From assembly GCA_963831935.1 (NCBI GenBank), contig CAWHSH010000001.1, forward strand, positions 128,389 to 192,388: 64,000 nt of DNA, in the 5' to 3' direction. A model generated the notes under the pieces. The model was not told where the DNA came from. It searched no databases and saw only the letters and a list, made by a program, of their open reading frames with translations. This document shows, piece after piece, positions 28,589-55,818 of the stretch (position 1 is its first letter; each line of letters opens with the position of its first letter). Position numbers and translations under genes: made by a program. This DNA is from an uncultured Bacteroidales bacterium. GTDB taxonomy: Bacteria > Bacteroidota > Bacteroidia > Bacteroidales > VadinHA17.

Positions 28589-29020
28589 ATGAAAAAAGTA
28601 ATAAATGTGCTTGTGATTGATGACAATGAATATTACAACAAACTTCTGTCGGATGCAATTCAACAAAGTATCAGCTCTACCCTGCCTGAAAGGAAATACA
28701 AACTTGTTCTGCGTTCATTTACCGATGCCAATGAGTATATAAAGAAACTTAAATCAGAGGGAATTGAGTGTGATGACAGCATAGTGTTCATAGATTATTA
28801 CCTCGGAAATGGCATTAATGCAGCTCATATTATTAAATTGCTTAAAGAATACAGTTGTGATACTATGGTAGTCCTGCTTTCACAATCAAATACCATAAAG
28901 GAAAAGAGCAAACTGGTAAATTGCGATTATTTTGTTGTGAAAGACAGCCTGGCTCCTGCACTGTGTTGTCTGTATCTCAGGCAGTATGTTGAAAATAAAT
29001 ATGCTATTACTTTGGATTAA
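28589..29020 (+). CDS. Single-domain response-regulator receiver
   Basis: VLVIDDNEYYNKLL...FIDYYLG...VVLLSQS...FVVKD gives the receiver DD/D/S/K pattern. Its TAA stop overlaps the next gene's ATG in TAATG at 29018-29022. Confidence 0.75.
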   Translation: MKKVINVLVIDDNEYYNKLLSDAIQQSISSTLPERKYKLVLRSFTDANEYIKKLKSEGIECDDSIVFIDYYLGNGINAAHIIKLLKEYSCDTMVVLLSQSNTIKEKSKLVNCDYFVVKDSLAPALCCLYLRQYVENKYAITLD

Positions 29021-31435
29021 TGAATGAATCTTCCAATAAATCCCTGAGAAAAAATTCGATTCAGATCAAGATTGGATTATTGATGATAGTGGCAGTTATA
29101 TTATTGTCAGCGACCTGCTATCTGTCGTACCGTAATCTTTCTTCAATTGCCTCTTCCATTCAGATCGATGTAAAACCGGAGCTAAGGTTGCTAAGCATCA
29201 GGGGAATCTCAATGGACCTTCAGAAAGCGGAAAACAGTGTAAGAATGTACACTCTTACAAAAGATCTGGCTGATATTAAACCCTATTACAAAATTATTTC
29301 AAATATTGATGAAAAAGTAAGCCAATTACGTTCTGAATGCCTGAACGACACGGCTTTGCTGGGTCAGACTGATACTATCAGCCAGCTTATTGAAGAAAAT
29401 ATTTTTATCTGGAACAAACTTCTGCTCCTGAACCATGACGACAAAGTTATAGACTATATGAAACAGCTGTCGGACCAGTTGGATTCTGCTTCGGAAAGCA
29501 GTCAAAAAAAAAGGAATTCTGAAACGGGTTTTCAGCCGCAGTGATAAAAGTCTCCTGTATGAACAGGAGATCATGAATAATCTTAACGAGATAGTAGAAC
29601 AGGATCGCTCAACAAAAGAAAAGCTTATCAGGCAGGAGACACAACTGGCGGTTACCGGTAGTGAGATCAAAGAAAAGTTCTATGATCTGATCACCAAAAT
29701 GGAAAATGAAATCTCTGACCTCATTAAGGCAAAAGCGGTGGCAGCCAATGAGATCGCGGCCAGCACATACAGGTGGCTTATACTGATTTCAATTTCGGGA
29801 GGATTGCTTGCAGTGCTGGTACTTTATATATTAATAAGGTATGTAAGAAAAGCATATTCTTACCAGATTGCCCTGGAGAATTCAAAAGATGAAGCGGAAA
29901 AGCTTGCCAGGACTAAAGAGCTGTTCATGGCAAATATAAGTCACGAGATCCGTACCCCGGTAACGGCAATCTCCGGGTTCACCGGACAACTACTGTATGA
30001 ATCATCAGATGAAAATATAAACCGATCGTTGAAAATCATCAAATCATCCTCTGATCATCTTCTAAAAATAATTGATGATATACTGGACTTTTCAAAATTG
30101 CAGAATAATAAGCTTACTCTTGAAAAAGTACACTTCAGAATAGACCAGATCCTTGAAGATGTTTATCTGCTCTTTGAAAAACAAGCTCTGCAGAACAATA
30201 CAAAATTAAGCTATTCATTAAGTTCCGACACACCTCCGGTTTTGCTGGGCGATCCTTACCGCCTGAAGCAGATAATAATAAACCTGGTAAGTAATTCTGT
30301 CAAATTCACAAAAAACGGCAGTGTTCATTTTGAAGTGAGCTGCAGGAAAAAACACCCGGGGAAAATTGACCTGATAATGGAATTCAATGACACAGGAATA
30401 GGAATTGATGAAGCCAAACTGAATATCATTTTCGAAGATTTTACGCAGGCCGAAATGAGTACCACGAGAAAGTACGGCGGTACAGGATTAGGATTATCAA
30501 TAGTCAAGAAGCTCATCGAGTTACAGGAGGGTACTATCGACGTAAGAAGCAGAAAAAACCAGGGAACACTGATTGTATGCAGGATACCATTTATTGTGGG
30601 CGATGAAAACCAGATTAAAACTGATGTTGGTCACCCTCTTTCTGTTCCTGAAGAATTATCCGGATTGAAAATCCTGATTGTGGATGATGAAGAATATAAT
30701 CGTCTTCTCTTCAAAAAGATACTTGACAGATGGAAAATTAAATGCCTTGAAGTGATAAATGGTATGGAAGCATTGGAATTACTTAAAGAGGAGCGGTTTG
30801 ACCTCCTCTTCATGGATATGCGGATGCCCGGGATCGACGGACTTAAAACCACCCGGTTCATCCGCACCGAAATGAAAATATCCGAACCTGATATGCCGAT
30901 AGTACTCATCTCAGCCGCTCCGCTGAATGAGGACCTGCAGAAGTACAGGAATGCTGGGATGAGCGCTTTTCTTCAGAAACCATTCACAGAAGAAATGCTC
31001 CTGGCAACCATTATGTCAGTGGTAACGAATAAATCACAAGTCATAGTCGACGAAACCGGACCTAAGGATGATCATAAAAATGATTCCAGCGATAAAATTA
31101 ACCTTCACAATCTGTATCATATTTCAGGCGGAGATGAGGAGTTTGTAAAACAGATGCTTGGCTCCTTTATCAGTACCACAGAAAAGGGCCTGAAGGAGTT
31201 GCAGGATGCTGTTATATCGAAGAATTGGGATTCTGTGGCAGATCTGGCCCATAAGATACTGTCGCCATGCCGGCACATCGGGGCAATGGATCTGTATAAC
31301 CTTCTAAGCAAAATTGAAAAGAGTATCCGGAACGACAATAATACGGAATCAGTTGAATCTTTGACCGGAAAATCACTTAAAGAATTTGAAGCCGTAAGTG
31401 AGCTTTTGAATAAGCATATTTCAAAACTGAATTAA
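29020..31435 (+). pseudogene. Hybrid sensor kinase (CHASE3-like sensor, TM, HisKA, HATPase, REC, Hpt) split by a frameshift at an A9 tract
   Basis: ORF 29020..29544 holds TM plus a CHASE3-like helical sensor. ORF 29573..31435 holds TM, H-box ANISHEIRTPV, GGTGLGLSIVKKL, receiver ILIVDDEE...FMDMRMPGIDG and Hpt HKILSPCRHIGA. Removing one A from the run at 29504-29512 joins both ORFs as ...SSQKKGILKRVFSRSDKSLLYEQEIMNNL.... Confidence 0.8.
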
Positions 31436-32869: not shown

Positions 32870-32954
32870 CCTTATTTCCACAAGTCTTCCTGCTTATTCA
32901 GATTTATTCGGGGTCGTGTGACTCCGTGGTAAAGGAATTTTTCATTAGAAATTC

Positions 32955-32985
32955 TTCTCAAAATGAGAATTGTTTCTCAAAATGA
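32955..32985 (+). promoter_or_regulatory. Direct repeat TTCTCAAAATGA x2 (19-bp register); candidate enhancer-binding-protein site
   Basis: Identical 12-mers at 32955-32966 and 32974-32985. They lie ~70-100 bp upstream of the candidate -24/-12 element and just downstream of the NtrC-type gene. Confidence 0.3.
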
Positions 32986-33055
32986 ACAAATCCATAACTT
33001 ATGTGGTTATGAATAATGAGCTCATATTTAGTACACTAAGTTTAACTTTATACAT

Positions 33056-33071
33056 CGGCCCGTCATTTGTA
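33056..33071 (+). promoter_or_regulatory. Candidate sigma-54 (-24/-12) promoter
   Basis: cGGCcCG-tcat-TTGta compared with the consensus TGGCACG-N4-TTGCW. The GG-N10-G spacing is kept but the -12 C is a T. It sits ~90 nt upstream of the ATG at 33163. Confidence 0.3.
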
Positions 33072-33162
33072 CTTTGGACATGAACCCGGAATCGGAATAA
33101 AATTCACTTTTAAAGAAATTCTATAAATAATGATTATTTAACTTAATTAAGGAGGAAAAAAA

Positions 33163-34149
33163 ATGGAAAACAAAGAAACCGCAGGCCGTGATTTAGCAAA
33201 CCAGCGCCTGGCTGAGCAAAACAAACTGGAAAACGCGAAGAAAGAAGGGCGTGCAAAAGGAGTACTGATCACCGCAATTATCGGTCTTCTCCTTCTCCTC
33301 GCACTGGGCGTACTGGGGTATTCACTCTATAACCGTGAACACAATAATCAGATCGCCCTTATGGAGAATCAGAAAAATTCATTTATGGAGCAGCTTACTG
33401 CCCGTGATTCCATGATCAACGACTGGCTGTCCACCTTCGATCAGATTGAAAAAAATCTGACCATGATAAAAGAGAAGGAAAAACTGCTCACTGTAAAGTC
33501 GTCATCGAATACAGAAGTATCAAAGAACAGGAAGGAACAGATTATGGAAGATATAAAAACAATAAATAATCTGATCGATGAGAACAAAAAGAAAATTGCG
33601 AACTTAAGTGCTCAGTTGAAAAAATCGGGCAATACCATCAAGGGCCTGGAGGAAAGGATAGCCACCCTCGAAGCAACAACAAAACAATATGAGAATGACA
33701 TAGCTGAATTAAGGACGACCATTGGCACCAAGGATTTAGAGATTGGACAACTTAATACAACAATGGTAGCTCTTAACGACACACTTACCCGGAAGAATGA
33801 AAAAATAAATGTTCAGATAAGTAAGCTGCATCAGGGATTTCTCGCTTCCGGTACTTTTAAGGATCTGAAGGCAAAGGGTCTGCTTACAAAAGAAGGTGGT
33901 TTTCTAGGCCTTGGCAGGAGGGAAAATATGGTAGGAGATTTTCCTGACAGCCTCTTCACTGAGATTGATGTCACCCAAACCAAGTCCATTCCCGTTAACT
34001 CAAAGTCGGTCAAACTCATAACTGAACACCCTGTAAACTCGTATGAGCTGATTCGTGAAGGCGATAATAAGATCGCTTCTATTGAGATAAAAGACCCTCA
34101 GGAGTTCTGGAAGATTTCAAAATATGCTGTTGTTGAACTGATTAAGTAG
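33163..34149 (+). CDS. Membrane-anchored coiled-coil protein with a conserved-looking C-terminal globular domain
   Basis: 328 aa. One TM helix (VLITAIIGLLLLLALGVLGYSLY), ~170 aa of heptad-like Lys/Glu/Leu-rich sequence, then ...GTFKDLKAKGLLTKEGGFLGLG...ITEHPVNSYELI...FWKISKYAVVELIK. No firm family assignment. Confidence 0.6.
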   Translation: MENKETAGRDLANQRLAEQNKLENAKKEGRAKGVLITAIIGLLLLLALGVLGYSLYNREHNNQIALMENQKNSFMEQLTARDSMINDWLSTFDQIEKNLTMIKEKEKLLTVKSSSNTEVSKNRKEQIMEDIKTINNLIDENKKKIANLSAQLKKSGNTIKGLEERIATLEATTKQYENDIAELRTTIGTKDLEIGQLNTTMVALNDTLTRKNEKINVQISKLHQGFLASGTFKDLKAKGLLTKEGGFLGLGRRENMVGDFPDSLFTEIDVTQTKSIPVNSKSVKLITEHPVNSYELIREGDNKIASIEIKDPQEFWKISKYAVVELIK

Positions 34150-34250: not shown

Positions 34251-34274
34251 AAAACATTCATTTCGCATGAAAAC

Positions 34275-34304
34275 TGTTAATAACTTCCCCGGGAATGTTA
34301 TTTA
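34275..34304 (+). promoter_or_regulatory. Near-palindromic box TGTTAATAAC-N12-GTTATTTA upstream of RNA candidate A
   Basis: The same box recurs at 34927-34955 upstream of candidate B, with N11 spacing. Confidence 0.35.
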
Positions 34305-34356
34305 AAGTTCTTCATTCCTAAAGCATTGTAACTGTTCTGTTTCTAACTTTGTCAAC

Positions 34357-34448
34357 GGCCAGCATCCTGTCGCCTTTCCTATTCTGGAATTAGCACAATA
34401 AAATACTGATTAACAACTTAGACAAAATCGGATGCTGGCTCCTTTATT
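34357..34448 (+). ncRNA. Candidate structured small RNA, copy A
   Basis: TAACTTTG (-7-like box, 34344-34351) lies 5 nt upstream. GGCCAGCATCC (34357-34367) pairs with GGATGCTGGCT (34430-34440). Inner hairpin TTCC-TATTCT-GGAA. T-rich tail CCTTTATT. A paralogous copy sits at 34998-35093. Confidence 0.45.
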
Positions 34449-34558
34449 AAGTTAACCTGCATCCGGCATAAAAAAATTTGATGCCGGCTGAGAATATTTT
34501 TACGGTAAAAACGTTATTAAGTGTATCTGTAGGGAAGTTTTAAACTATTTAAGGCAAA

Positions 34559-34750
34559 ATGATAACTATGGAACCTAGCGAATTAAACAATTCAATTAAT
34601 GTAAGCGCCTACAAGATAAGCCTTGCAAAGCAGCTGGAAGAGAATGCCAGAAAATTAATGGAACATTACAGAAAGCTTCAGGAATCGCAGGAGAAATTGA
34701 AGGAGAACCATAAGCAGGAAACACACAGTTTTGTCTGTGACTGGCAATAA
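34559..34750 (+). CDS. Possible 63-aa helical small protein
   Basis: ORF-track entry only (…EENARKLMEHYRKLQESQEKLKENHKQE…). It lies between the two RNA candidates. No homology recognised. Confidence 0.25.
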   Translation: MITMEPSELNNSINVSAYKISLAKQLEENARKLMEHYRKLQESQEKLKENHKQETHSFVCDWQ

Positions 34751-34926
34751 ATGACAATCCGCAAACTGAAACAACCTCAATAGCATTTGCCCGGAGCCAG
34801 GAGGTTTTGTATTTCAGGATACCATCCAGAAATTATAGCATTTTTAAGTAACAAGGTATTTTTACTACCCCTGGTCATGTTTTTTGTTACATAAGGCTCA
34901 CTTATTGAACTTTGAATGGGGTCAGT

Positions 34927-34955
34927 TGTTAATAACTTTCTGGATATGTTATTTA
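34927..34955 (+). promoter_or_regulatory. Near-palindromic box TGTTAATAAC-N11-GTTATTTA upstream of RNA candidate B
   Basis: Paralog of the box at 34275-34304. Its distance to the TAACTTTG box is 29 nt here against 39 nt in copy A. Confidence 0.35.
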
Positions 34956-34997
34956 GTAAGGAGAATTTGCAATATTTCAATATCTAACTTTGATGAC

Positions 34998-35093
34998 GGC
35001 CAGCATCCATTCTCATTTTCCTACTCTGGAAATTGTATTGGACCAAAATAATTGATTAATGCTAATAAAACGGATGCTGGCTTTCTTTATTTC
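34998..35093 (+). ncRNA. Candidate structured small RNA, copy B
   Basis: TAACTTTG at 34985-34992. GGCCAGCATCC (34998-35008) pairs with GGATGCTGGCT (35072-35082). Inner hairpin TTCC-TACTCT-GGAA. Tail TTCTTTATTT. Confidence 0.45.
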
Positions 35094-35156: not shown

Positions 35157-35195
35157 TAAAAAAAACAGTCCGTATTACTTAACGGGCTGTTTTTT
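35157..35195. terminator. Bidirectional rho-independent terminator
   Basis: A-run, then CAGTCCGT-attactta-ACGGGCTG, then TTTTTT. It sits 28 nt beyond the stop of the minus-strand OMP gene. Confidence 0.6.
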
Positions 35196-35222
35196 CAATT
35201 AACGATGGTTATATTCTGAATG

Positions 35223-35777
35223 TCAGAACTTCAGTGCTATACCAACATTGAGGTAAGTTACACCATAACCGAGTTCAGCCATTACGCCAAAACTGGGTTT
35301 GAAGAAATATCTTGCTCCTATATAACCTGCTGACCTTATACCACCGGATGTTGCATTATAGTTATATCCAATCGGAGTACCAAACTCTTTTGAACTTACA
35401 ATATTATAGCCAATTAACAGGCCCAGATAGGTATCCAGCTTATTGGCCAGGGGGTAGTGGAAGTTGCCTCTCACACCGACAATGATATTTGTATATTTGT
35501 AGCCCCAGTCTGAATATTCCCATTTATATGATGAATATCCAATGTACGGACCAACTCCGATAACGCCTTTTTCAAGAATATTATCGGCAACACCAAATTC
35601 AAGAGAAGCAGAAACCGGAGGCACCGAGCTATGATAATAAGTTCCGGAATACCATGTAGAGCCAAAACCGATTCCAAGATTGAGCGCTTTGTCGCCCTTT
35701 GAGAATGAGGCTTCCTGGGCAACCAGTTGGGTAAGAGCAAAACAAACCACAACTACCGAAAGAAAAAGTTTTCTCAT
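35223..35777 (-). CDS. Small outer-membrane beta-barrel protein (OmpW/porin-like)
   Basis: Signal peptide, alternating aromatic/Gly beta-strand pattern, C-terminal ...GIALKF with a terminal Phe. Confidence 0.7.
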   Translation of the reverse strand: MRKLFLSVVVVCFALTQLVAQEASFSKGDKALNLGIGFGSTWYSGTYYHSSVPPVSASLEFGVADNILEKGVIGVGPYIGYSSYKWEYSDWGYKYTNIIVGVRGNFHYPLANKLDTYLGLLIGYNIVSSKEFGTPIGYNYNATSGGIRSAGYIGARYFFKPSFGVMAELGYGVTYLNVGIALKF

Positions 35778-35975
35778 AGTTAAAAGATTTATAACATTTT
35801 GAAATTAGAAAATTAAAACATACTAATTAACATATCAACAACCATTTCAGGGTTTTGTTTAATTCCCCTTAAATATAATGAAATTTTTGGATTTGCAGAA
35901 CAGGTGCAAAAATGAGCCGAAATTGCATGTCCCTGAAACAGAAAATTCCGGGGATTTATTAAAAACTACATGTAA

Positions 35976-36692
35976 TTATATAGATCCGTGAAAGATCAGG
36001 TACATTGCAGCTGCAAGTGCTGCTCCCAATAATGGACCAAGTATCGGTACCCAGGAATAACTCCAGTCACTGTCTCTTTTGTTCGGAATAGGAAGCAAGA
36101 AATGCATTATACGCGGACCCAGGTCACGCGCCGGATTTATTGCGTATCCGGTAGGTCCTCCAAGTGATAATCCTAAACCAAGGACAACCAGAGCTACGGG
36201 GAGAGCATTCAATGAACCGAGTCCCACTTCAGGTTCAGCCATATACAGCACAGCCAGGGCGAGGACATAAGTACCAATTATTTCAGTAATTACATTATAC
36301 CAGTAGCTCCTTATATTGGGCATCGTACAGAATACCGACAGTTTTGAGTTGCCGTCTTCGGTGGCATCAAAATGCTTCTTATATGCCAGCCAAACAAGCC
36401 CGGCTCCGAACATAGCTCCCAGAAGCTGTGCGCAAACATATACCGGTACTTTACTCCACGAGAACTTATTAACGATGGCAAGAGCAAGCGTGACTGCAGG
36501 ATTAAGGTGCGCGCCGCTGAATGGGGCTGCGATTAATACTCCTGTGAATACTCCTACTGCCCACCCGAAGGTAATCACAATCCAGCCGCTGTTGTTCCCT
36601 TTTGTTTTATTCAAAAGAACATTTGACACAACTCCGCCTCCGAAGACAATTATCATTGCGGTTCCGAAAAATTCAGCAAAAAATGGATTCAT
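35976..36692 (-). CDS. glpF: Glycerol uptake facilitator (MIP/aquaporin family)
   Basis: Two NPA boxes (HLNPAVT, INPARDLGPR). Sits in an operon with glpK and glpD. Confidence 0.9.
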   Translation of the reverse strand: MNPFFAEFFGTAMIIVFGGGVVSNVLLNKTKGNNSGWIVITFGWAVGVFTGVLIAAPFSGAHLNPAVTLALAIVNKFSWSKVPVYVCAQLLGAMFGAGLVWLAYKKHFDATEDGNSKLSVFCTMPNIRSYWYNVITEIIGTYVLALAVLYMAEPEVGLGSLNALPVALVVLGLGLSLGGPTGYAINPARDLGPRIMHFLLPIPNKRDSDWSYSWVPILGPLLGAALAAAMYLIFHGSI

Positions 36693-36721
36693 ATTCCTTG
36701 TTGTTAATGTTTGGTAAGTTC

Positions 36722-36760
36722 CTTGTTGCTGGTTACTGGTAACTGGTTGCTTGTTGCTAG
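36722..36760. repeat. TTGCTGGTT/ACTGGTT-type repeat (family R3)
   Basis: cttgttgctggttactggtaactggttgcttgttgct. Relatives at 41076-41138, 48121-48195 and 61041-61105. Confidence 0.75.
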
Positions 36761-36767
36761 CACCATA

Positions 36768-36870
36768 ATTCCCCCTTTGAAGGGGGCTGAGCGTTAAAAA
36801 TTTGCCTAGTAGGCAAATTTAGCGAAGGAGCCGGCTTGAAGCGGAGATTTTGTGGTGGGGGTCAGGGGGA
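36768..36870. repeat. Double-hairpin repeat (family R4)
   Basis: CCCCCTTTGAAGGGGG-cTGAGCGTTAAAAATTTGCCTAgTAGGCAAATTTAGCGAAGGAGCC...GGGGGATGT. A second copy lies at 61175-61262. This copy sits in the glpK-glpF intergenic spacer. Confidence 0.8.
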
Positions 36871-36915
36871 TGTCATCCTTTTTGAAATTTTAATTTATTA
36901 TTAACTTATTGTTAA

Positions 36916-38412
36916 TTAATTACCGGCTGATGCCCAGGCTTCAGCAGCTTTTACTGCACGGACCCAGCCTTTGATGAGCGCCCTGGTTTCTTCTTCAGGC
37001 ATCGTTGGTGAAAAGGTTCTGTCAAGCTGCCATTGCTTTTTAATCTCTTCCATATTGTTCCAGTATTTAACGGCCAGGCCTGCGAGATAAGCTGCACCAA
37101 GAGCTGTCGTCTCGGTTATTTTTGGTCTCACAACATTTGTTCTTAGCAGATCGGCCTGGAACTGCATCAGGTTCTCATTTACAGTCGCACCACCGTCAAC
37201 ACGTAATTCCTTTATTTCTATTCCGGAATCCTTCTGCATTGCAAGCAGTACCTCAAGAGTCTGGAAAGCAATGCTGTCGAGTGCAGCACGGGCAATATGA
37301 GCTGATGTTGTCCCGCGGGTAATACCAACAATGGTGCCTCTTGCATGCTGGTTCCAGTGAGGAGCCCCCAATCCCGCAAAAGCCGGAACAAAATAAACAC
37401 CGTCGTTGTCCCTGACATTTGCAGCGAGTTTCTCTACATCACCCGACTTTGTTATTATCCCCAGCCCATCCCGCAGCCACTGGACAACTGCACCTGCAAT
37501 AAATATACTGCCTTCAAGCGCATACTGTGTTTCATTTCCGATCTTCCAGCCGATTGTAGTGAGAAGCCTGCTTTTTGATTCAATAGGCTTGTTTCCGATA
37601 TTCATCATCATGAAGCATCCTGTTCCGTAAGTGTTCTTTATCATTCCCGGCTCGGTGCACATCTGCCCGAAAAGGGCTGCCTGCTGGTCACCTGCGATAC
37701 CTGCTACAGGGATCTCTGTGGCAAACTGGCCTGCCGTGCGGCCGTAGATTTCACTTGAAGACCTTACGTCAGGCAGCATGCTGGCAGGGATACCGAATAC
37801 TTTGAGCAGATCCTTATCCCATTCGAGTGTGTGAATGTTGAACAGCATAGTCCGCGAAGCATTCGAAACATCAGTGATATGAAGCCTTCCGCCGGTGAGG
37901 TTCCAGATAAGCCATGAGTCAACAGTTCCGAAAGCCAGCTCACCTTTTTCAGCAAGCTTTCCGGCATCTTTTACATTTTCAAGGATCCACCTTACTTTTG
38001 TTGCTGAAAAATAAGCATCTATTATCAGCCCTGTCTTTTTGAGGATGATCTTGCTCTGCCCTTCTTCCTTCAGTTTATCACAAAACTCAGCGGTCCGCCT
38101 GTCTTGCCATACAATTGCATTATAAACGGGCTTGCCGGTCTTTCTGTTCCAGACAACTGTGGTCTCGCGCTGATTGGTAATTCCAATGCCTGCAATATCA
38201 TTGCTTTTCAGGCCTGCCTTTGCAATGGCCTCTGTTGCGACTCCTGCCTGGGAAGACCAGATCTCTTCAGGATTATGTTCCACCCATCCTGGTTTGGGAA
38301 AGATTTGCGTGAATTCTTTTTGGGCGGAAGCCACCGGCAGTCCGTTCCGGTTAAAAACTATTGCCCGGGAACTTGTGGTTCCCTGATCAAAGGAGAGGAT
38401 AAAATCTTTCAT
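36916..38412 (-). CDS. glpK: Glycerol kinase
   Basis: 498 aa. [14 protein letters not shown]-terminus and full-length FGGY kinase blocks ([22 protein letters not shown]). Confidence 0.95.
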
Positions 38413-38443
38413 ACCGGATCAGATTGTTTATTTGAATTATATT

Positions 38444-40003
38444 CTAAAGATAGTTAGCTGTCAAGGTTTTATACTCTTTTATCTGTTGTTCTTTCCAGGA
38501 TTCATTGAAACCAAGCTCATCAGCCATTAAATCTGCTACATCCCTGCTGGCAGCAATGCTGGCCCTGACATCAAGGAAAAGTGCCCGGGTTCTCCTTGCA
38601 AGCATGTCCTCAAGCGTTCGGGGCATCTCATTCCTGCAAATCCATATAACTTCGGCTCTGGAGTAAGGAAGTCTTTTATCGATATGCTCTCCAAGCGAAG
38701 GCTGGTCATCAATCAGTTTCTCAATTTCAGGTGCATTTCTGCCGTAAATTTTCAGCCGTTCAGACTTCAGAACTGTATTATTACTGTAAAAGCTGAATGT
38801 TCCTGTAACGCATTTTCTGTTTTCCAGCAACCCGGCTTTGATCCCCTTGTTTATTGTTTCCTCAGCCATCCGGCGGTACGAAGTCCATTTTCCACCTATT
38901 ATTGAAAGCAGTCCTGAGGGAGAAAGAGTAATCTTATGCCTCCTTGAAACTTCTTTGGTAGCTTCAGGATTATCAGGATTTGCAGCAAGCGGCCTCAAAC
39001 CTGCGAAGATGCACAAAATGTCCTCTCTTTTCGGAGGTTTTGTAAGGTATTTTCCTGCGGTTGAAAGTATAAATTCAACCTCTTTATCCATGGCTTTTGG
39101 CTCGAGGGTTATGATTTCAAGCGGAGTATCAGTTGTTCCCACCACAACTTTGCCATACCACGGAATTGCAAAGAGCACCCGGCCGTCGTCAGTTTTCGGG
39201 ATCATAATGGCTGATTTGCTCTGAAGGAAATAGTTGTCGAGAACTACATGGACTCCCTGACTCGGGCGAATTGTCGGCCTCGATGAAGGCTCATCCATCC
39301 TGTGGATTTCATCAGCAAAAACGCCCGATGCATTTATAACAATCCTGCTATGAATAGTATACTCAGTTCCCGACTCCAAATCCTTAGCCAATACCCCCGT
39401 TATTTTGCTCTTCCCGTCTTTAAGCAGACCAACGACCCTGAAATAATTAAGAATGGTTCCCCCGTTTTCCACGCTTGCTTTTGCCAGGGTGATGCCCATC
39501 CGGGAATCATCAAACTGACCATCGTGATAAACAATACCGCCCTTCAATCCATCAGATTTAAGGAGAGGAAGCCGGTTAACCGCTTCAGACTTACTTATAA
39601 AATATGATTTCCCCATGCTAAGTCTTCCTGCGAGCAGATCATAGAATTTCAGTCCTATAGTGTACAGGAAAACATCCCATAAGGTATATACCGGAATTAC
39701 AAATTCCTGGTTGGAAGTAAGATGAGGGGCATTTTTCAGAATCAGGCCCCGTTCATGTAATGCTTCAGTTACCAGCAGGATATCTCCCTGTGCAAGATAA
39801 CGCACACCTCCATGAACAAGCTTTGTGCTCCTTGACGAGGTCCCTTTTGTAAAATCGGCCTGTTCGAGAAGGAGTGTTTTATACCCGCGCGTAACAGCAT
39901 CAAACGCCACTCCAAGTCCTGTTGCCCCGCCTCCGATAATAATTACGTCCCATTGCTGCGACTGGTTGTTCTTCAGATTCCGGATCAGGGTATCACGATT
40001 CAT
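38444..40003 (-). CDS. glpD: FAD-dependent glycerol-3-phosphate dehydrogenase
   Basis: 519 aa. DVIIIGGGATGLGVA FAD fold and TSSRSTKLVHGGVRYL block. Sits upstream of glpK. Confidence 0.9.
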   Translation of the reverse strand: MNRDTLIRNLKNNQSQQWDVIIIGGGATGLGVAFDAVTRGYKTLLLEQADFTKGTSSRSTKLVHGGVRYLAQGDILLVTEALHERGLILKNAPHLTSNQEFVIPVYTLWDVFLYTIGLKFYDLLAGRLSMGKSYFISKSEAVNRLPLLKSDGLKGGIVYHDGQFDDSRMGITLAKASVENGGTILNYFRVVGLLKDGKSKITGVLAKDLESGTEYTIHSRIVINASGVFADEIHRMDEPSSRPTIRPSQGVHVVLDNYFLQSKSAIMIPKTDDGRVLFAIPWYGKVVVGTTDTPLEIITLEPKAMDKEVEFILSTAGKYLTKPPKREDILCIFAGLRPLAANPDNPEATKEVSRRHKITLSPSGLLSIIGGKWTSYRRMAEETINKGIKAGLLENRKCVTGTFSFYSNNTVLKSERLKIYGRNAPEIEKLIDDQPSLGEHIDKRLPYSRAEVIWICRNEMPRTLEDMLARRTRALFLDVRASIAASRDVADLMADELGFNESWKEQQIKEYKTLTANYL

Positions 40004-40364
40004 CTGTTCATTCTATTCGGGTAATAATGTTACAAAGAATTTTTTAGAGTCCAATAAAAATGTGTTTGAAAAAATCCAAAGAAATCCATTTAACCACGAA
40101 GTTTCACCGGGTTTCACCGAGTTCCACGTTTGTTTTACAAAAACAGGTAACATCATCCTCGTAAATACGGTTTCCAAAACCATGTTATTTCCCGATTTTT
40201 ACCTGACTGACATAGTAAACTCCGTGACAGGTTCAAAAGACCTACAGCACGGTCCACTATTGTCAGTTAAGTAAAACAATAAATCAATAACTTTAAAAAC
40301 TATTTCAAAGAACGTAAACAAACATCGAGTAGCTCACGAAGTAACCAATTAATGAAAAGAACAG

Positions 40365-49985: not shown

Positions 49986-50216
49986 ACCCTCTGTGACCCT
50001 TTGTGTCTCCTCTGTGGATCTCAGTGAAACAAATAACGAACTTACACAGAGTTAAAAAGACCTCATCCCCCGACCCCTTCTCCCGAAGTGAGAAGGGGAG
50101 TATTAAATTGATAATCAGGATTTAAGCCCCTCTCCCTTGGGAGAGGGGTTGGGGTGAGGTCGATTCGCTTAAGGGGTTGGGGGGCAAAAAAAGCCGGCCT
50201 TCTGAGACCGGCTTTC
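49986..50216 (+). repeat. Composite ~230-bp repeat (R2 module, R1 module, terminator hairpin) downstream of a SusD gene
   Basis: It aligns end to end with 55582-55818. The central part CTCATCCCCCG.CCCCTTCTCCCGAAGTGAGAAGGGGAGTATTAAATTGATAATCAG.ATTTAAGCCCCTCTCCC is nearly identical in both copies. Confidence 0.85.
50186..50214 (-). terminator. Rho-independent terminator after SusD-1
   Basis: AAGCCGG-ccttctgaga-CCGGCTT hairpin with a T-run on the minus strand. It lies 33 nt beyond the stop at 50247. Confidence 0.6.
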
Positions 50217-55581: not shown

Positions 55582-55818
55582 ACCCTCTGTGACCCTACTG
55601 TGAATCCTTTGTGGATCTCTGTGAAACAATTTAAGAACTTACACAGAGTTAAAAAGAACTCATCCCCCGGCCCCTTCTCCCGAAGTGAGAAGGGGAGTAT
55701 TAAATTGATAATCAGAATTTAAGCCCCTCTCCCCCGGGAGAGGGGTTGGGGTGAGGTCTATTCACAGGGGGGATAGGGGTCAAAATAAAAAAGCCGGCCC
55801 TTTCAGACCGGCTTTTAC
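55582..55818 (+). repeat. Second copy of the composite R2+R1+terminator repeat, downstream of SusD-2
   Basis: See 49986-50216. It occupies the same position relative to the SusD stop codon (55852). Confidence 0.85.
55787..55814 (-). terminator. Rho-independent terminator after SusD-2
   Basis: AAGCCGG-ccctttcaga-CCGGCTT hairpin with a T-run on the minus strand. Confidence 0.6.

Follow-up and report, generated by a model that had tools for sequence, protein, structure and literature searches.

Two sister genes predicted to encode a folded RNA of about 90 nt flank a small conserved ORF beside the glycerol operon of uncultured Bacteroidales

The DNA considered here is a 64-kb stretch (the window) of contig CAWHSH010000001.1, from an uncultured Bacteroidales bacterium. 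Between a gene for a 328-aa protein (33163-34149) and the 3′ end of a convergent operon, glpD-glpK-glpF-omp, lie two similar units on the plus strand, copy A (34275-34450) and copy B (34926-35093). Each consists of an upstream site, a −7 promoter box, a segment predicted to be transcribed into a folded RNA (RNA A, 34357-34450; RNA B, 34998-35093), and a U-rich tail, and a small open reading frame (ORF) lies between the two. An earlier reading made from the letters of this DNA (the sequence-only reading) had described the copies as two paralogous units of promoter plus structured RNA, and all of the blocks that it listed are present where it placed them. The 5′ arm GGCCAGCATCC (34357-34367 in A and 34998-35008 in B) starts exactly 5 nt past the −7 box in both copies and can pair with the 3′ arm GGATGCTGGCT (34430-34440 and 35072-35082) across a loop of 62 nt in A and 63 nt in B; the inner hairpin TTCC-TAYTCT-GGAA, the motif TGATTAA, and the T-rich tail are likewise found in both. 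Comparison with related contigs indicates that the two repeats are real and ancient sister genes for a folded RNA of ~90 nt.

The same RNAs were recovered in ~30 further contigs (the relatives, labeled L001 and so on), every one of which comes from uncultured Bacteroidales. The 328-aa protein encoded just 5′ of copy A has many homologues in uncultured Bacteroidales, and copies A and B are both present in L001, L004, and L005, in which this homologue is 92%, 77%, and 70% identical, respectively. A scan for the pattern TTTCCTAYTCTGGAA-N10-30-TGAYTAA, which leaves the closing helix unconstrained, returned eight true loci versus four chance matches from species-representative genomes. The true loci comprise six distinct genomes beyond two contigs found earlier, and all are metagenome-assembled genomes of Bacteroidales, one of them labeled Rikenellaceae; metagenomes contributed ~25 more loci to the same scan. 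Contigs of the family come from wetland, sediment, and anaerobic-digester samples, among them the JGI series Ga0153915, Ga0153916, and Ga0315295. Viral contigs yielded no match to the pattern, and a phage origin was rejected on this ground. Within the window, the exact 11-mer GGCCAGCATCC occurs only twice on the plus strand, both times at the copies, and its one-mismatch complement is confined to them as well. A covariance model derived from a MAFFT alignment of 21 RNAs scored copy A at 108.8 bits (E = 1e-25) and copy B at 65.4 bits (E = 3e-14), and detected a second, B-type RNA in each locus that extends far enough. None of the 4227 models of Rfam 15 matched anywhere in the window at gathering thresholds. 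Over positions 34272-35093, at E-values up to 10, the only hit was to a plant microRNA model at 10 bits, and permissive E-values returned only microRNA noise from the relatives L028 and L018; the suggestion that the family is undescribed thus agrees with the absence of any Rfam match.

The predicted fold of both RNAs is far better than that of shuffled sequence (z = −4.2 for A and −4.6 for B). RNAalifold, run on the alignment of 21 RNAs, recovered a closing helix of 11 bp, P1, in which four pairs have changed in a compensatory way. Across 41 distinct sequences P1 is 99.3% paired and has changed on both sides at four of its 11 pairs (34 cells in all); its covariation score was matched by none of 500 shuffles, and as a control, sliding the 3′ partners by one to three columns left only 21%-51% paired, as against 97% for the observed register in this comparison. 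One example is an A-U to G-C swap within P1 of RNA A in L005. The helix is therefore backed by changes that compensate and preserve pairing, as is expected of a structured RNA, and the claim that selection has acted on RNA structure was borne out. G-U pairs are present at column pair 4/96 in 38 of the 41 sequences and at column pair 14/86 in 13, and because such pairs work on one strand alone, the RNA strand is the plus strand. The covariance model gives ~100 bits on that strand and 15-25 bits on the minus strand.

Inside P1 lie a hairpin, P2, of the form UUUCC-URYUCU-GGRAA (34376-34389 in A; 35017-35032 in B) and a weak hairpin, P3, of the form AAUUR/UGAUU (34388-34393/34406-34411 in A; 35031-35035/35053-35057 in B). 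In RNA A these are followed by an A-rich single-stranded joiner (34412-34429), and the U-rich tail occupies 34441-34450 in A and 35083-35093 in B. The A-type register of P3 is compatible with all sequences; an alternative register for the B type, AAUUAU/AUAAUU, was rejected, being broken by an ACAAUU variant in L013, L029, L037, and L040. The interior is nearly invariant within each RNA type, J1/2, the P3 loop, and J3/1 vary among the A and B types and a third type, C, and the RNA contains A-rich repeats such as AACAACUUAACAAAC.

Both RNAs are more conserved than the adjoining protein-coding DNA. Identity to the window is 89%-98% for RNA A and 81%-100% for RNA B, set against 74%-78% for the DNA of the small ORF, 64%-79% for the spacer between RNA A and that ORF, and 53%-77% for the upstream DNA, and RNA B is identical over ~95 nt in L001, L004, and L005. 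The assignment of RNA A thus draws on its fold z score, the covariance model, the covariation of P1, and an identity above that of its flanks, and that of RNA B on its fold z score, the covariance model, and its identity among these three relatives. Two fixed copies, one A and one B, are found in syntenic position at each locus across clades whose flanking proteins are 53%-77% identical, and a second B subtype occurs in all clades other than that of the window. The split between A and B predates the divergence of the sampled clades, in line with the earlier rejection of a recent neutral duplication. Miniature inverted-repeat transposable elements (MITEs), which the same reading had named as an alternative, do not apply: the two fixed syntenic copies per locus, with none in viral contigs, are unlike the many copies with target-site duplications that would mark such elements.

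The type C has an A-like interior and is found at unrelated loci, ~25 nt after another hairpin RNA, type D. D-type RNAs (minus strand; L028 6477-6564, L024 397-484, L039 4307-4394, and L049 1164-1251) are long hairpins of ~75 nt that share the scaffold of closing helix and U-tail and have an unrelated interior, and they possess their own −7 box, TATTTTTG, and palindromic site, CTGATAATTAATATATTATCAG. Every D-type RNA has a C-type copy ~25 nt beyond it. Both types are convergent with the next gene, and the C type has neither a co-oriented downstream gene nor a small ORF nearby; such stand-alone members argue for independent RNA genes.

Each RNA is preceded by a −7 box, TAACTTTG in both copies (34344-34351 in A; 34985-34992 in B), which the sequence-only reading had rightly assigned to the Bacteroidota TAnnTTTG type. 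In ~30 loci TA and TTTG are invariant and the nn positions vary (AC, AA, CC, or TC), and the gap from the box to P1 is always 4-5 nt, being 5 nt in both window copies. This conservation is the signature of the Bacteroidota housekeeping-sigma element, from which the start site is predicted. No conserved copy of the −33 element TTTG was found 19-21 nt 5′ of the box in the window or its relatives; the closest TTG in the window lies 15 nt upstream of the box and is not conserved in relatives. The missing −33 element would fit an activator-dependent promoter. A sigma-54 promoter for the RNAs was considered and rejected, as inspection by eye revealed no GG-N10-GC between the upstream site and the RNA.

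The upstream site spans 34275-34304 in copy A (TGTTAATAAC-N11-TGTTATTTA), where it ends 39 nt before the −7 box, and 34926-34955 in copy B (TTGTTAATAAC...GTTATTTA), where it ends 29 nt before it. It had been called a near-palindrome; its location stands, but it fits a direct repeat better, with TGTTAAT-like units spaced at a period of 21 bp (TGTTAATAACTT then TGTTATTTA in A; TTGTTAATAACTT then TGTTATTTA in B). The consensus TGTT[AG]ATAACTT-N9-TGTTAWTT precedes every A and B copy. Of 61 occurrences of the site 12-mer in 504 kb of compared DNA, 59 precede these RNAs and the remaining two belong to B promoters truncated by contig ends; allowing up to one mismatch, the window contains only the two sites. 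This exclusiveness, together with variable nn positions within an otherwise fixed box, supports the proposed selection on promoter and operator. Site and box are 29 nt apart throughout the A and B types, apart from the A copies of the window's clade, in which 39-40 nt separate them, so that the difference of 39 versus 29 nt noted earlier is correct and its interpretation as one helical turn gains support. The position of the site (roughly −71 to −42) and the phase-preserving insertion of one turn point to a putative activator site. A candidate for the activator would be a response regulator of a kind that recognizes direct repeats of this period, such as the LytTR type. As a separate observation, the A-type RNA holds AUUAACAA at 34404-34414 (listed on the minus strand), which is perfectly complementary to TTGTTAAT, the core of the site upstream of that RNA; this is not found in the B type and could be a coincidence or a feedback feature.

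At the other end of each RNA, a U-rich tract directly follows P1 in every member of the family, and for this reason P1 and the tail together look like a terminator. The stem has 11 bp, eight of them G-C pairs, and is followed by CCUUUAUU in A or UUUCUUUAUU in B, which is the GC-rich stem with a direct U-tract of an intrinsic terminator. The U-tracts are shorter and weaker in A copies than in B copies. A simple terminator scan did not flag P1 because its “loop” of ~62 nt is atypical. An alternative (anti-terminator) pairing for P1 was found neither in the folds nor in the stretch that leads from RNA A to the ORF, and the upstream gene and the small ORF each have a terminator of their own.

The interval between the copies had been taken for a gene-poor gap, which does not hold: a conserved ORF of 60 aa (MEPSEL...SFVCDWQ) lies at 34568-34750, stop included, on the plus strand. 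Its family forms only 61 protein clusters in a database of 5.8 billion proteins; identity is 53% or more throughout, the terminal FVCDWQ never varies, and the protein matched no family in Pfam or NCBIfam. It is hydrophilic, rich in K, E, and Q, and approximately neutral in charge by residue count, and AlphaFold2 predicts one long helix (pLDDT 90.8). A type I toxin-antitoxin system was considered and rejected, as the product is hydrophilic rather than hydrophobic and the RNAs lie on the same strand as the ORF without overlapping it. Counted from the first base of RNA A, the ORF start lies 210-223 nt downstream in each of 13 loci that represent several clades. The spacer between the two measures 111-123 nt in 11 of these loci, and the two outliers, of 130 and 201 nt, are accounted for by L004, whose start codon was mis-chosen, and L035, which has an insertion. 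Five loci were retrieved with the 60-aa protein alone, without use of the RNA, and all five have A upstream and B downstream. Because the spacer contains no TAnnTTTG box in any locus examined, the small ORF probably owes its transcription to read-through of RNA A, and given its fixed distance 5′ of a conserved small ORF, copy A would also be a leader. The leader segment itself (34451-34567, plus strand) includes a hairpin (34463-34469/34481-34487); the only structure seen along it across loci is such a short hairpin of variable sequence.

The module of A, small ORF, and B is present in each locus examined and in all of them faces the 3′ end of the convergent operon (35223-40003 in the window, minus strand), which carries one or two omp-like genes. 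In the window it comprises glpD (38444-40003; Pfam DAO), glpK (36916-38412; Pfam FGGY), glpF (35976-36692; Pfam MIP), and omp (35223-35777), a small outer-membrane beta-barrel-like gene with a weak match to the TDE1717 outer-membrane family. Copy B has no co-oriented downstream gene at any locus, as the sequence-only reading had said of the window. In several loci only 34-48 nt, devoid of a terminator, separate the end of B from the omp stop codon. In the window, a two-way terminator hairpin at 35160-35196 (AAAAAAAACAGTCCGTATTACTTAACGGGCTGTTTTTT) lies between RNA B and omp and forms the unit boundary; it yields just weak, terminator-type Rfam matches. The upstream site of the RNAs was sought before glpD and omp and is found at neither. 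Another element, TTCTTTGTAACATTATTACC (40022-40045, minus strand), is conserved in the glpD promoter, 15-25 nt 5′ of the glpD start codon in six of six loci compared; it contains the palindrome GTAA-N5-TTAC, differs from the site before the RNAs, and is likely a glp promoter or operator.

On the upstream side, adjacency to a sigma-54 two-component cluster had been pointed out. This is true of the window's clade, where the neighbors are that cluster and the 328-aa gene, which encodes a Cbp1-like coiled-coil protein, but it is not general, since other clades have a 777-aa NagB-like gene or an ECF sigma cluster in this place. A sigma-54-type promoter, GGCCCGTCATTTGTAC (33057-33072, plus strand), and a palindromic putative enhancer site, TTCTCAAAATGAGAA (32955-32969, plus strand), are found upstream of the 328-aa gene, are both conserved in L001, and are likely the target of the adjacent sigma-54 regulator. 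With a target promoter of its own for this regulator, the sigma-54 link to the RNAs becomes incidental and is not needed as an explanation. Two other features of this region differ from the relatives. Compared with L001 (5169-6000), ~490 bp are missing from the window at 32870-33162; in L001, L004, and L005 this segment holds a gene of 166 aa that separates the sigma-54 regulator from the 328-aa gene, and because the flanks align cleanly we regard the difference as a deletion in the window. Two ORFs, of 174 and 620 aa, make up a hybrid histidine kinase (29020-31435, plus strand) that in L001 and L005 is encoded by a single 806-aa gene with a CHASE3 domain; a frameshift, a pseudogene, or an assembly error could account for the split. 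Elsewhere in the window, an intergenic repeat of ~180 nt occurs twice (49990-50170 and 55590-55760, plus strand); it is rich in CTCTGTG/CACAGAG and in G-runs, and both copies have a terminator-like hairpin, AAAAAGCCGGCC...GGCCGGCTTT, behind them. In L005 (7900-8130) and L007 (7080-7800), intergenic DNA is filled with G-rich repeats of a similar kind.

We lean, with a little more than even confidence, toward reading the two units as sibling small-RNA genes that are activator dependent and whose closing helix doubles as the terminator. Each gene would be transcribed from a housekeeping-sigma promoter that has a TAnnTTTG box and no good −33 element, with the upstream direct repeat (TGTTAATAACTT/TGTTAWTT, 21-bp period) serving as the activator site. 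Transcription would start at, or one or two bases from, the first G of GGCCAGCATCC, and the resulting RNA of ~85-95 nt would close through P1, made from its own 5′ and 3′ ends, which together with the adjoining U-rich tract would form an intrinsic terminator. P1 would thereby present an AU-rich interior of ~62 nt, containing P2 with its pyrimidine loop, the weak P3, and a long A-rich single strand, and this invariant interior would be the working surface, acting through base pairing or protein binding. Copy A, with its weaker U-tract, would allow read-through into the mRNA of the 60-aa protein and so be both small RNA and leader; copy B, with a longer U-tract and no gene behind it, would be a stand-alone RNA. 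We infer the transcript ends, activator dependence, termination, read-through, and role in glycerol use from sequence.

Several points weigh against the sibling small-RNA genes as drawn here. Approximately 55 consecutive interior bases are near-invariant, more than a pairing seed usually needs, and a fold that binds a ligand or a protein could explain this as well. Covariation is unable to confirm P2 or P3, whose sequences are conserved, and the transcript ends and termination are predictions made from the DNA itself. That A and the ORF keep a fixed distance suggests a coupling in cis that is tighter than plain read-through. In addition, the start regions of neighboring genes yielded no convincing target site: pairing with the OMP mRNA, which had been put forward as a possible target, gained no support from the complementarity search or from duplex energies, and no conserved complementary site was seen in the starts of the small ORF, omp, glpF, glpK, or glpD. 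The duplex energies ranked local genes 21st-45th of 52, by a method that also gave implausibly long duplexes and is weak either way. The reverse complement of the P2 loop and the A-rich joiner matched only the RNAs themselves and an unrelated repeat.

Some of these points would be expected if the RNAs were instead cis-acting sensors, that is, riboswitches or protein-controlled attenuators in which a metabolite or protein bound by the three-helix fold tightens or loosens P1 and, P1 with its U-tract being the terminator, so decides on read-through. The ligand would perhaps come from glycerol metabolism, read-through of A would reach the small ORF, read-through of B or C would run antisense into the convergent gene, and stand-alone copies might act as decoys that soak up a shared factor. 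We consider this possible, though rather doubtful. It would account for the position of A at a fixed distance 5′ of the same ORF with no intervening promoter, for a closing helix set around a junction with near-invariant unpaired bases, for U-tracts that are weaker in A than in B, and for those loci in which B stops 34-48 nt short of the omp stop codon with no terminator, where read-through would be antisense to the glp-omp operon. However, the leader placement, consistently 210-223 nt before the small ORF, belongs to the A type, and the B and C types are not leaders, having no co-oriented downstream gene at any locus; the search for an anti-terminator pairing of P1 gave none; the variation of J1/2, the P3 loop, and J3/1 among A, B, and C exceeds what a single pocket usually tolerates; and the regulated product would be merely a 60-aa helix with no assigned function. 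A bolder form of the same idea, which strikes us as improbable, would see in the family a sensor RNA of a new class, whose binding domain is closed by a helix that is itself the terminator stem. It would respond to a metabolite of the glycerol pathway or to the 60-aa protein; A would gate the small protein, and B would gate antisense transcription into the glp operon or act as a decoy for the same factor. If this form were true, the module would be a self-contained, RNA-based control of glycerol use in Bacteroidales.

Interior conservation that exceeds the length of any seed could also mean that the RNAs are partners of a protein, either as a sponge for a global RNA-binding protein or in a ribonucleoprotein with the 60-aa helical protein. 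The constant linkage of both RNAs to the small ORF, A-rich repeats such as AACAACUUAACAAAC, and the binding of paralogous small RNAs of Bacteroides to RbpB (PMC11697453) are in its favor. But the 60-aa protein is close to neutral and is modeled by AlphaFold2 as a single helix with no known RNA-binding fold, the C-type copies lack a small ORF nearby, and no single RNA of the family carries a repeated binding motif, as known sponge RNAs do, and we judge a protein-binding role unlikely. Least credible of all, to the point that we give it next to no weight, is that there is no RNA function and that the units are MITE-like DNA repeats, plain terminators, or a recent duplication, as the inverted repeat followed by a T-run in each unit and the presence of two copies 640 bp apart might suggest. 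Both copy types are syntenic across clades with flanking proteins 53%-77% identical, there are two copies in the window and viral contigs lack them, a separate promoter box and upstream site precede each RNA, the G-U pairs function on one strand only, the interior is conserved beyond coding DNA, and the upstream gene and the small ORF carry terminators of their own. A repeat at the DNA level is thus essentially excluded.

What emerges is a well-supported RNA family that has no catalogued match, with an anatomy of activator site, promoter, folded RNA, and terminator, and that is always tied to a tiny conserved protein and a glycerol operon. To our knowledge, regulatory RNAs of Bacteroidota are known almost solely from a few gut Bacteroides strains, and no link between small RNAs of this phylum and glp genes was found in the literature. 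The family raises the questions of which regulator recognizes the TGTTAATAAC repeat, what the partner of the interior is, and whether RNA controls the breakdown of glycerol in these anaerobes, and the covariance model can be used to annotate it in metagenomes.

Among known systems, riboswitches and attenuators that end in an intrinsic terminator resemble copy A, in that a 5′ domain closed by a P1 helix is followed by a U-tract and a promoterless downstream ORF. They differ in that here P1 itself is the terminator stem, with no alternative pairing evident, and in that half of the members of the family have no gene to regulate. In the EutX/Rli55 RNAs of Enterococcus and Listeria, which form leader-plus-decoy circuits with the antiterminator EutV, one RNA motif likewise stands before a gene and in a stand-alone RNA and could titrate a shared factor; unlike these, A and B have no ANTAR-type dual hairpins and no antiterminator gene nearby, and the likeness is one of analogy only. 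Y RNA and YrlA-type RNAs share with A and B the pairing of their ends into a long stem that closes a structured interior, as well as terminal U residues; here, in contrast, there is no Rfam Y-RNA match, no Ro/Rsr gene in the loci examined, and no tRNA-like domain. The nearest known kind appears to be the paralogous small RNAs FopS and GibS of Bacteroides. The RNAs of the present family are set apart from these by published descriptions rather than by sequence comparison: FopS RNAs are 65-70 nt long with a single-stranded 5′ seed (PMC11697453), whereas A and B are ~85-95 nt long, with the 5′ end locked in P1 in all members and a conserved interior of ~60 nt. The hosts also differ, FopS being found in gut Bacteroides and A and B in uncultured environmental Bacteroidales, and the pairing with a small ORF has no counterpart in FopS. 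Like FopS and GibS of B. thetaiotaomicron (PMC11697453; PMC7366714), A and B are multi-copy siblings in Bacteroidota with promoters of the TAnnTTTG type, and in both cases an additional upstream regulator is suspected, the RNA ends at a terminator, and the genes are linked to nutrient uptake and the outer membrane.

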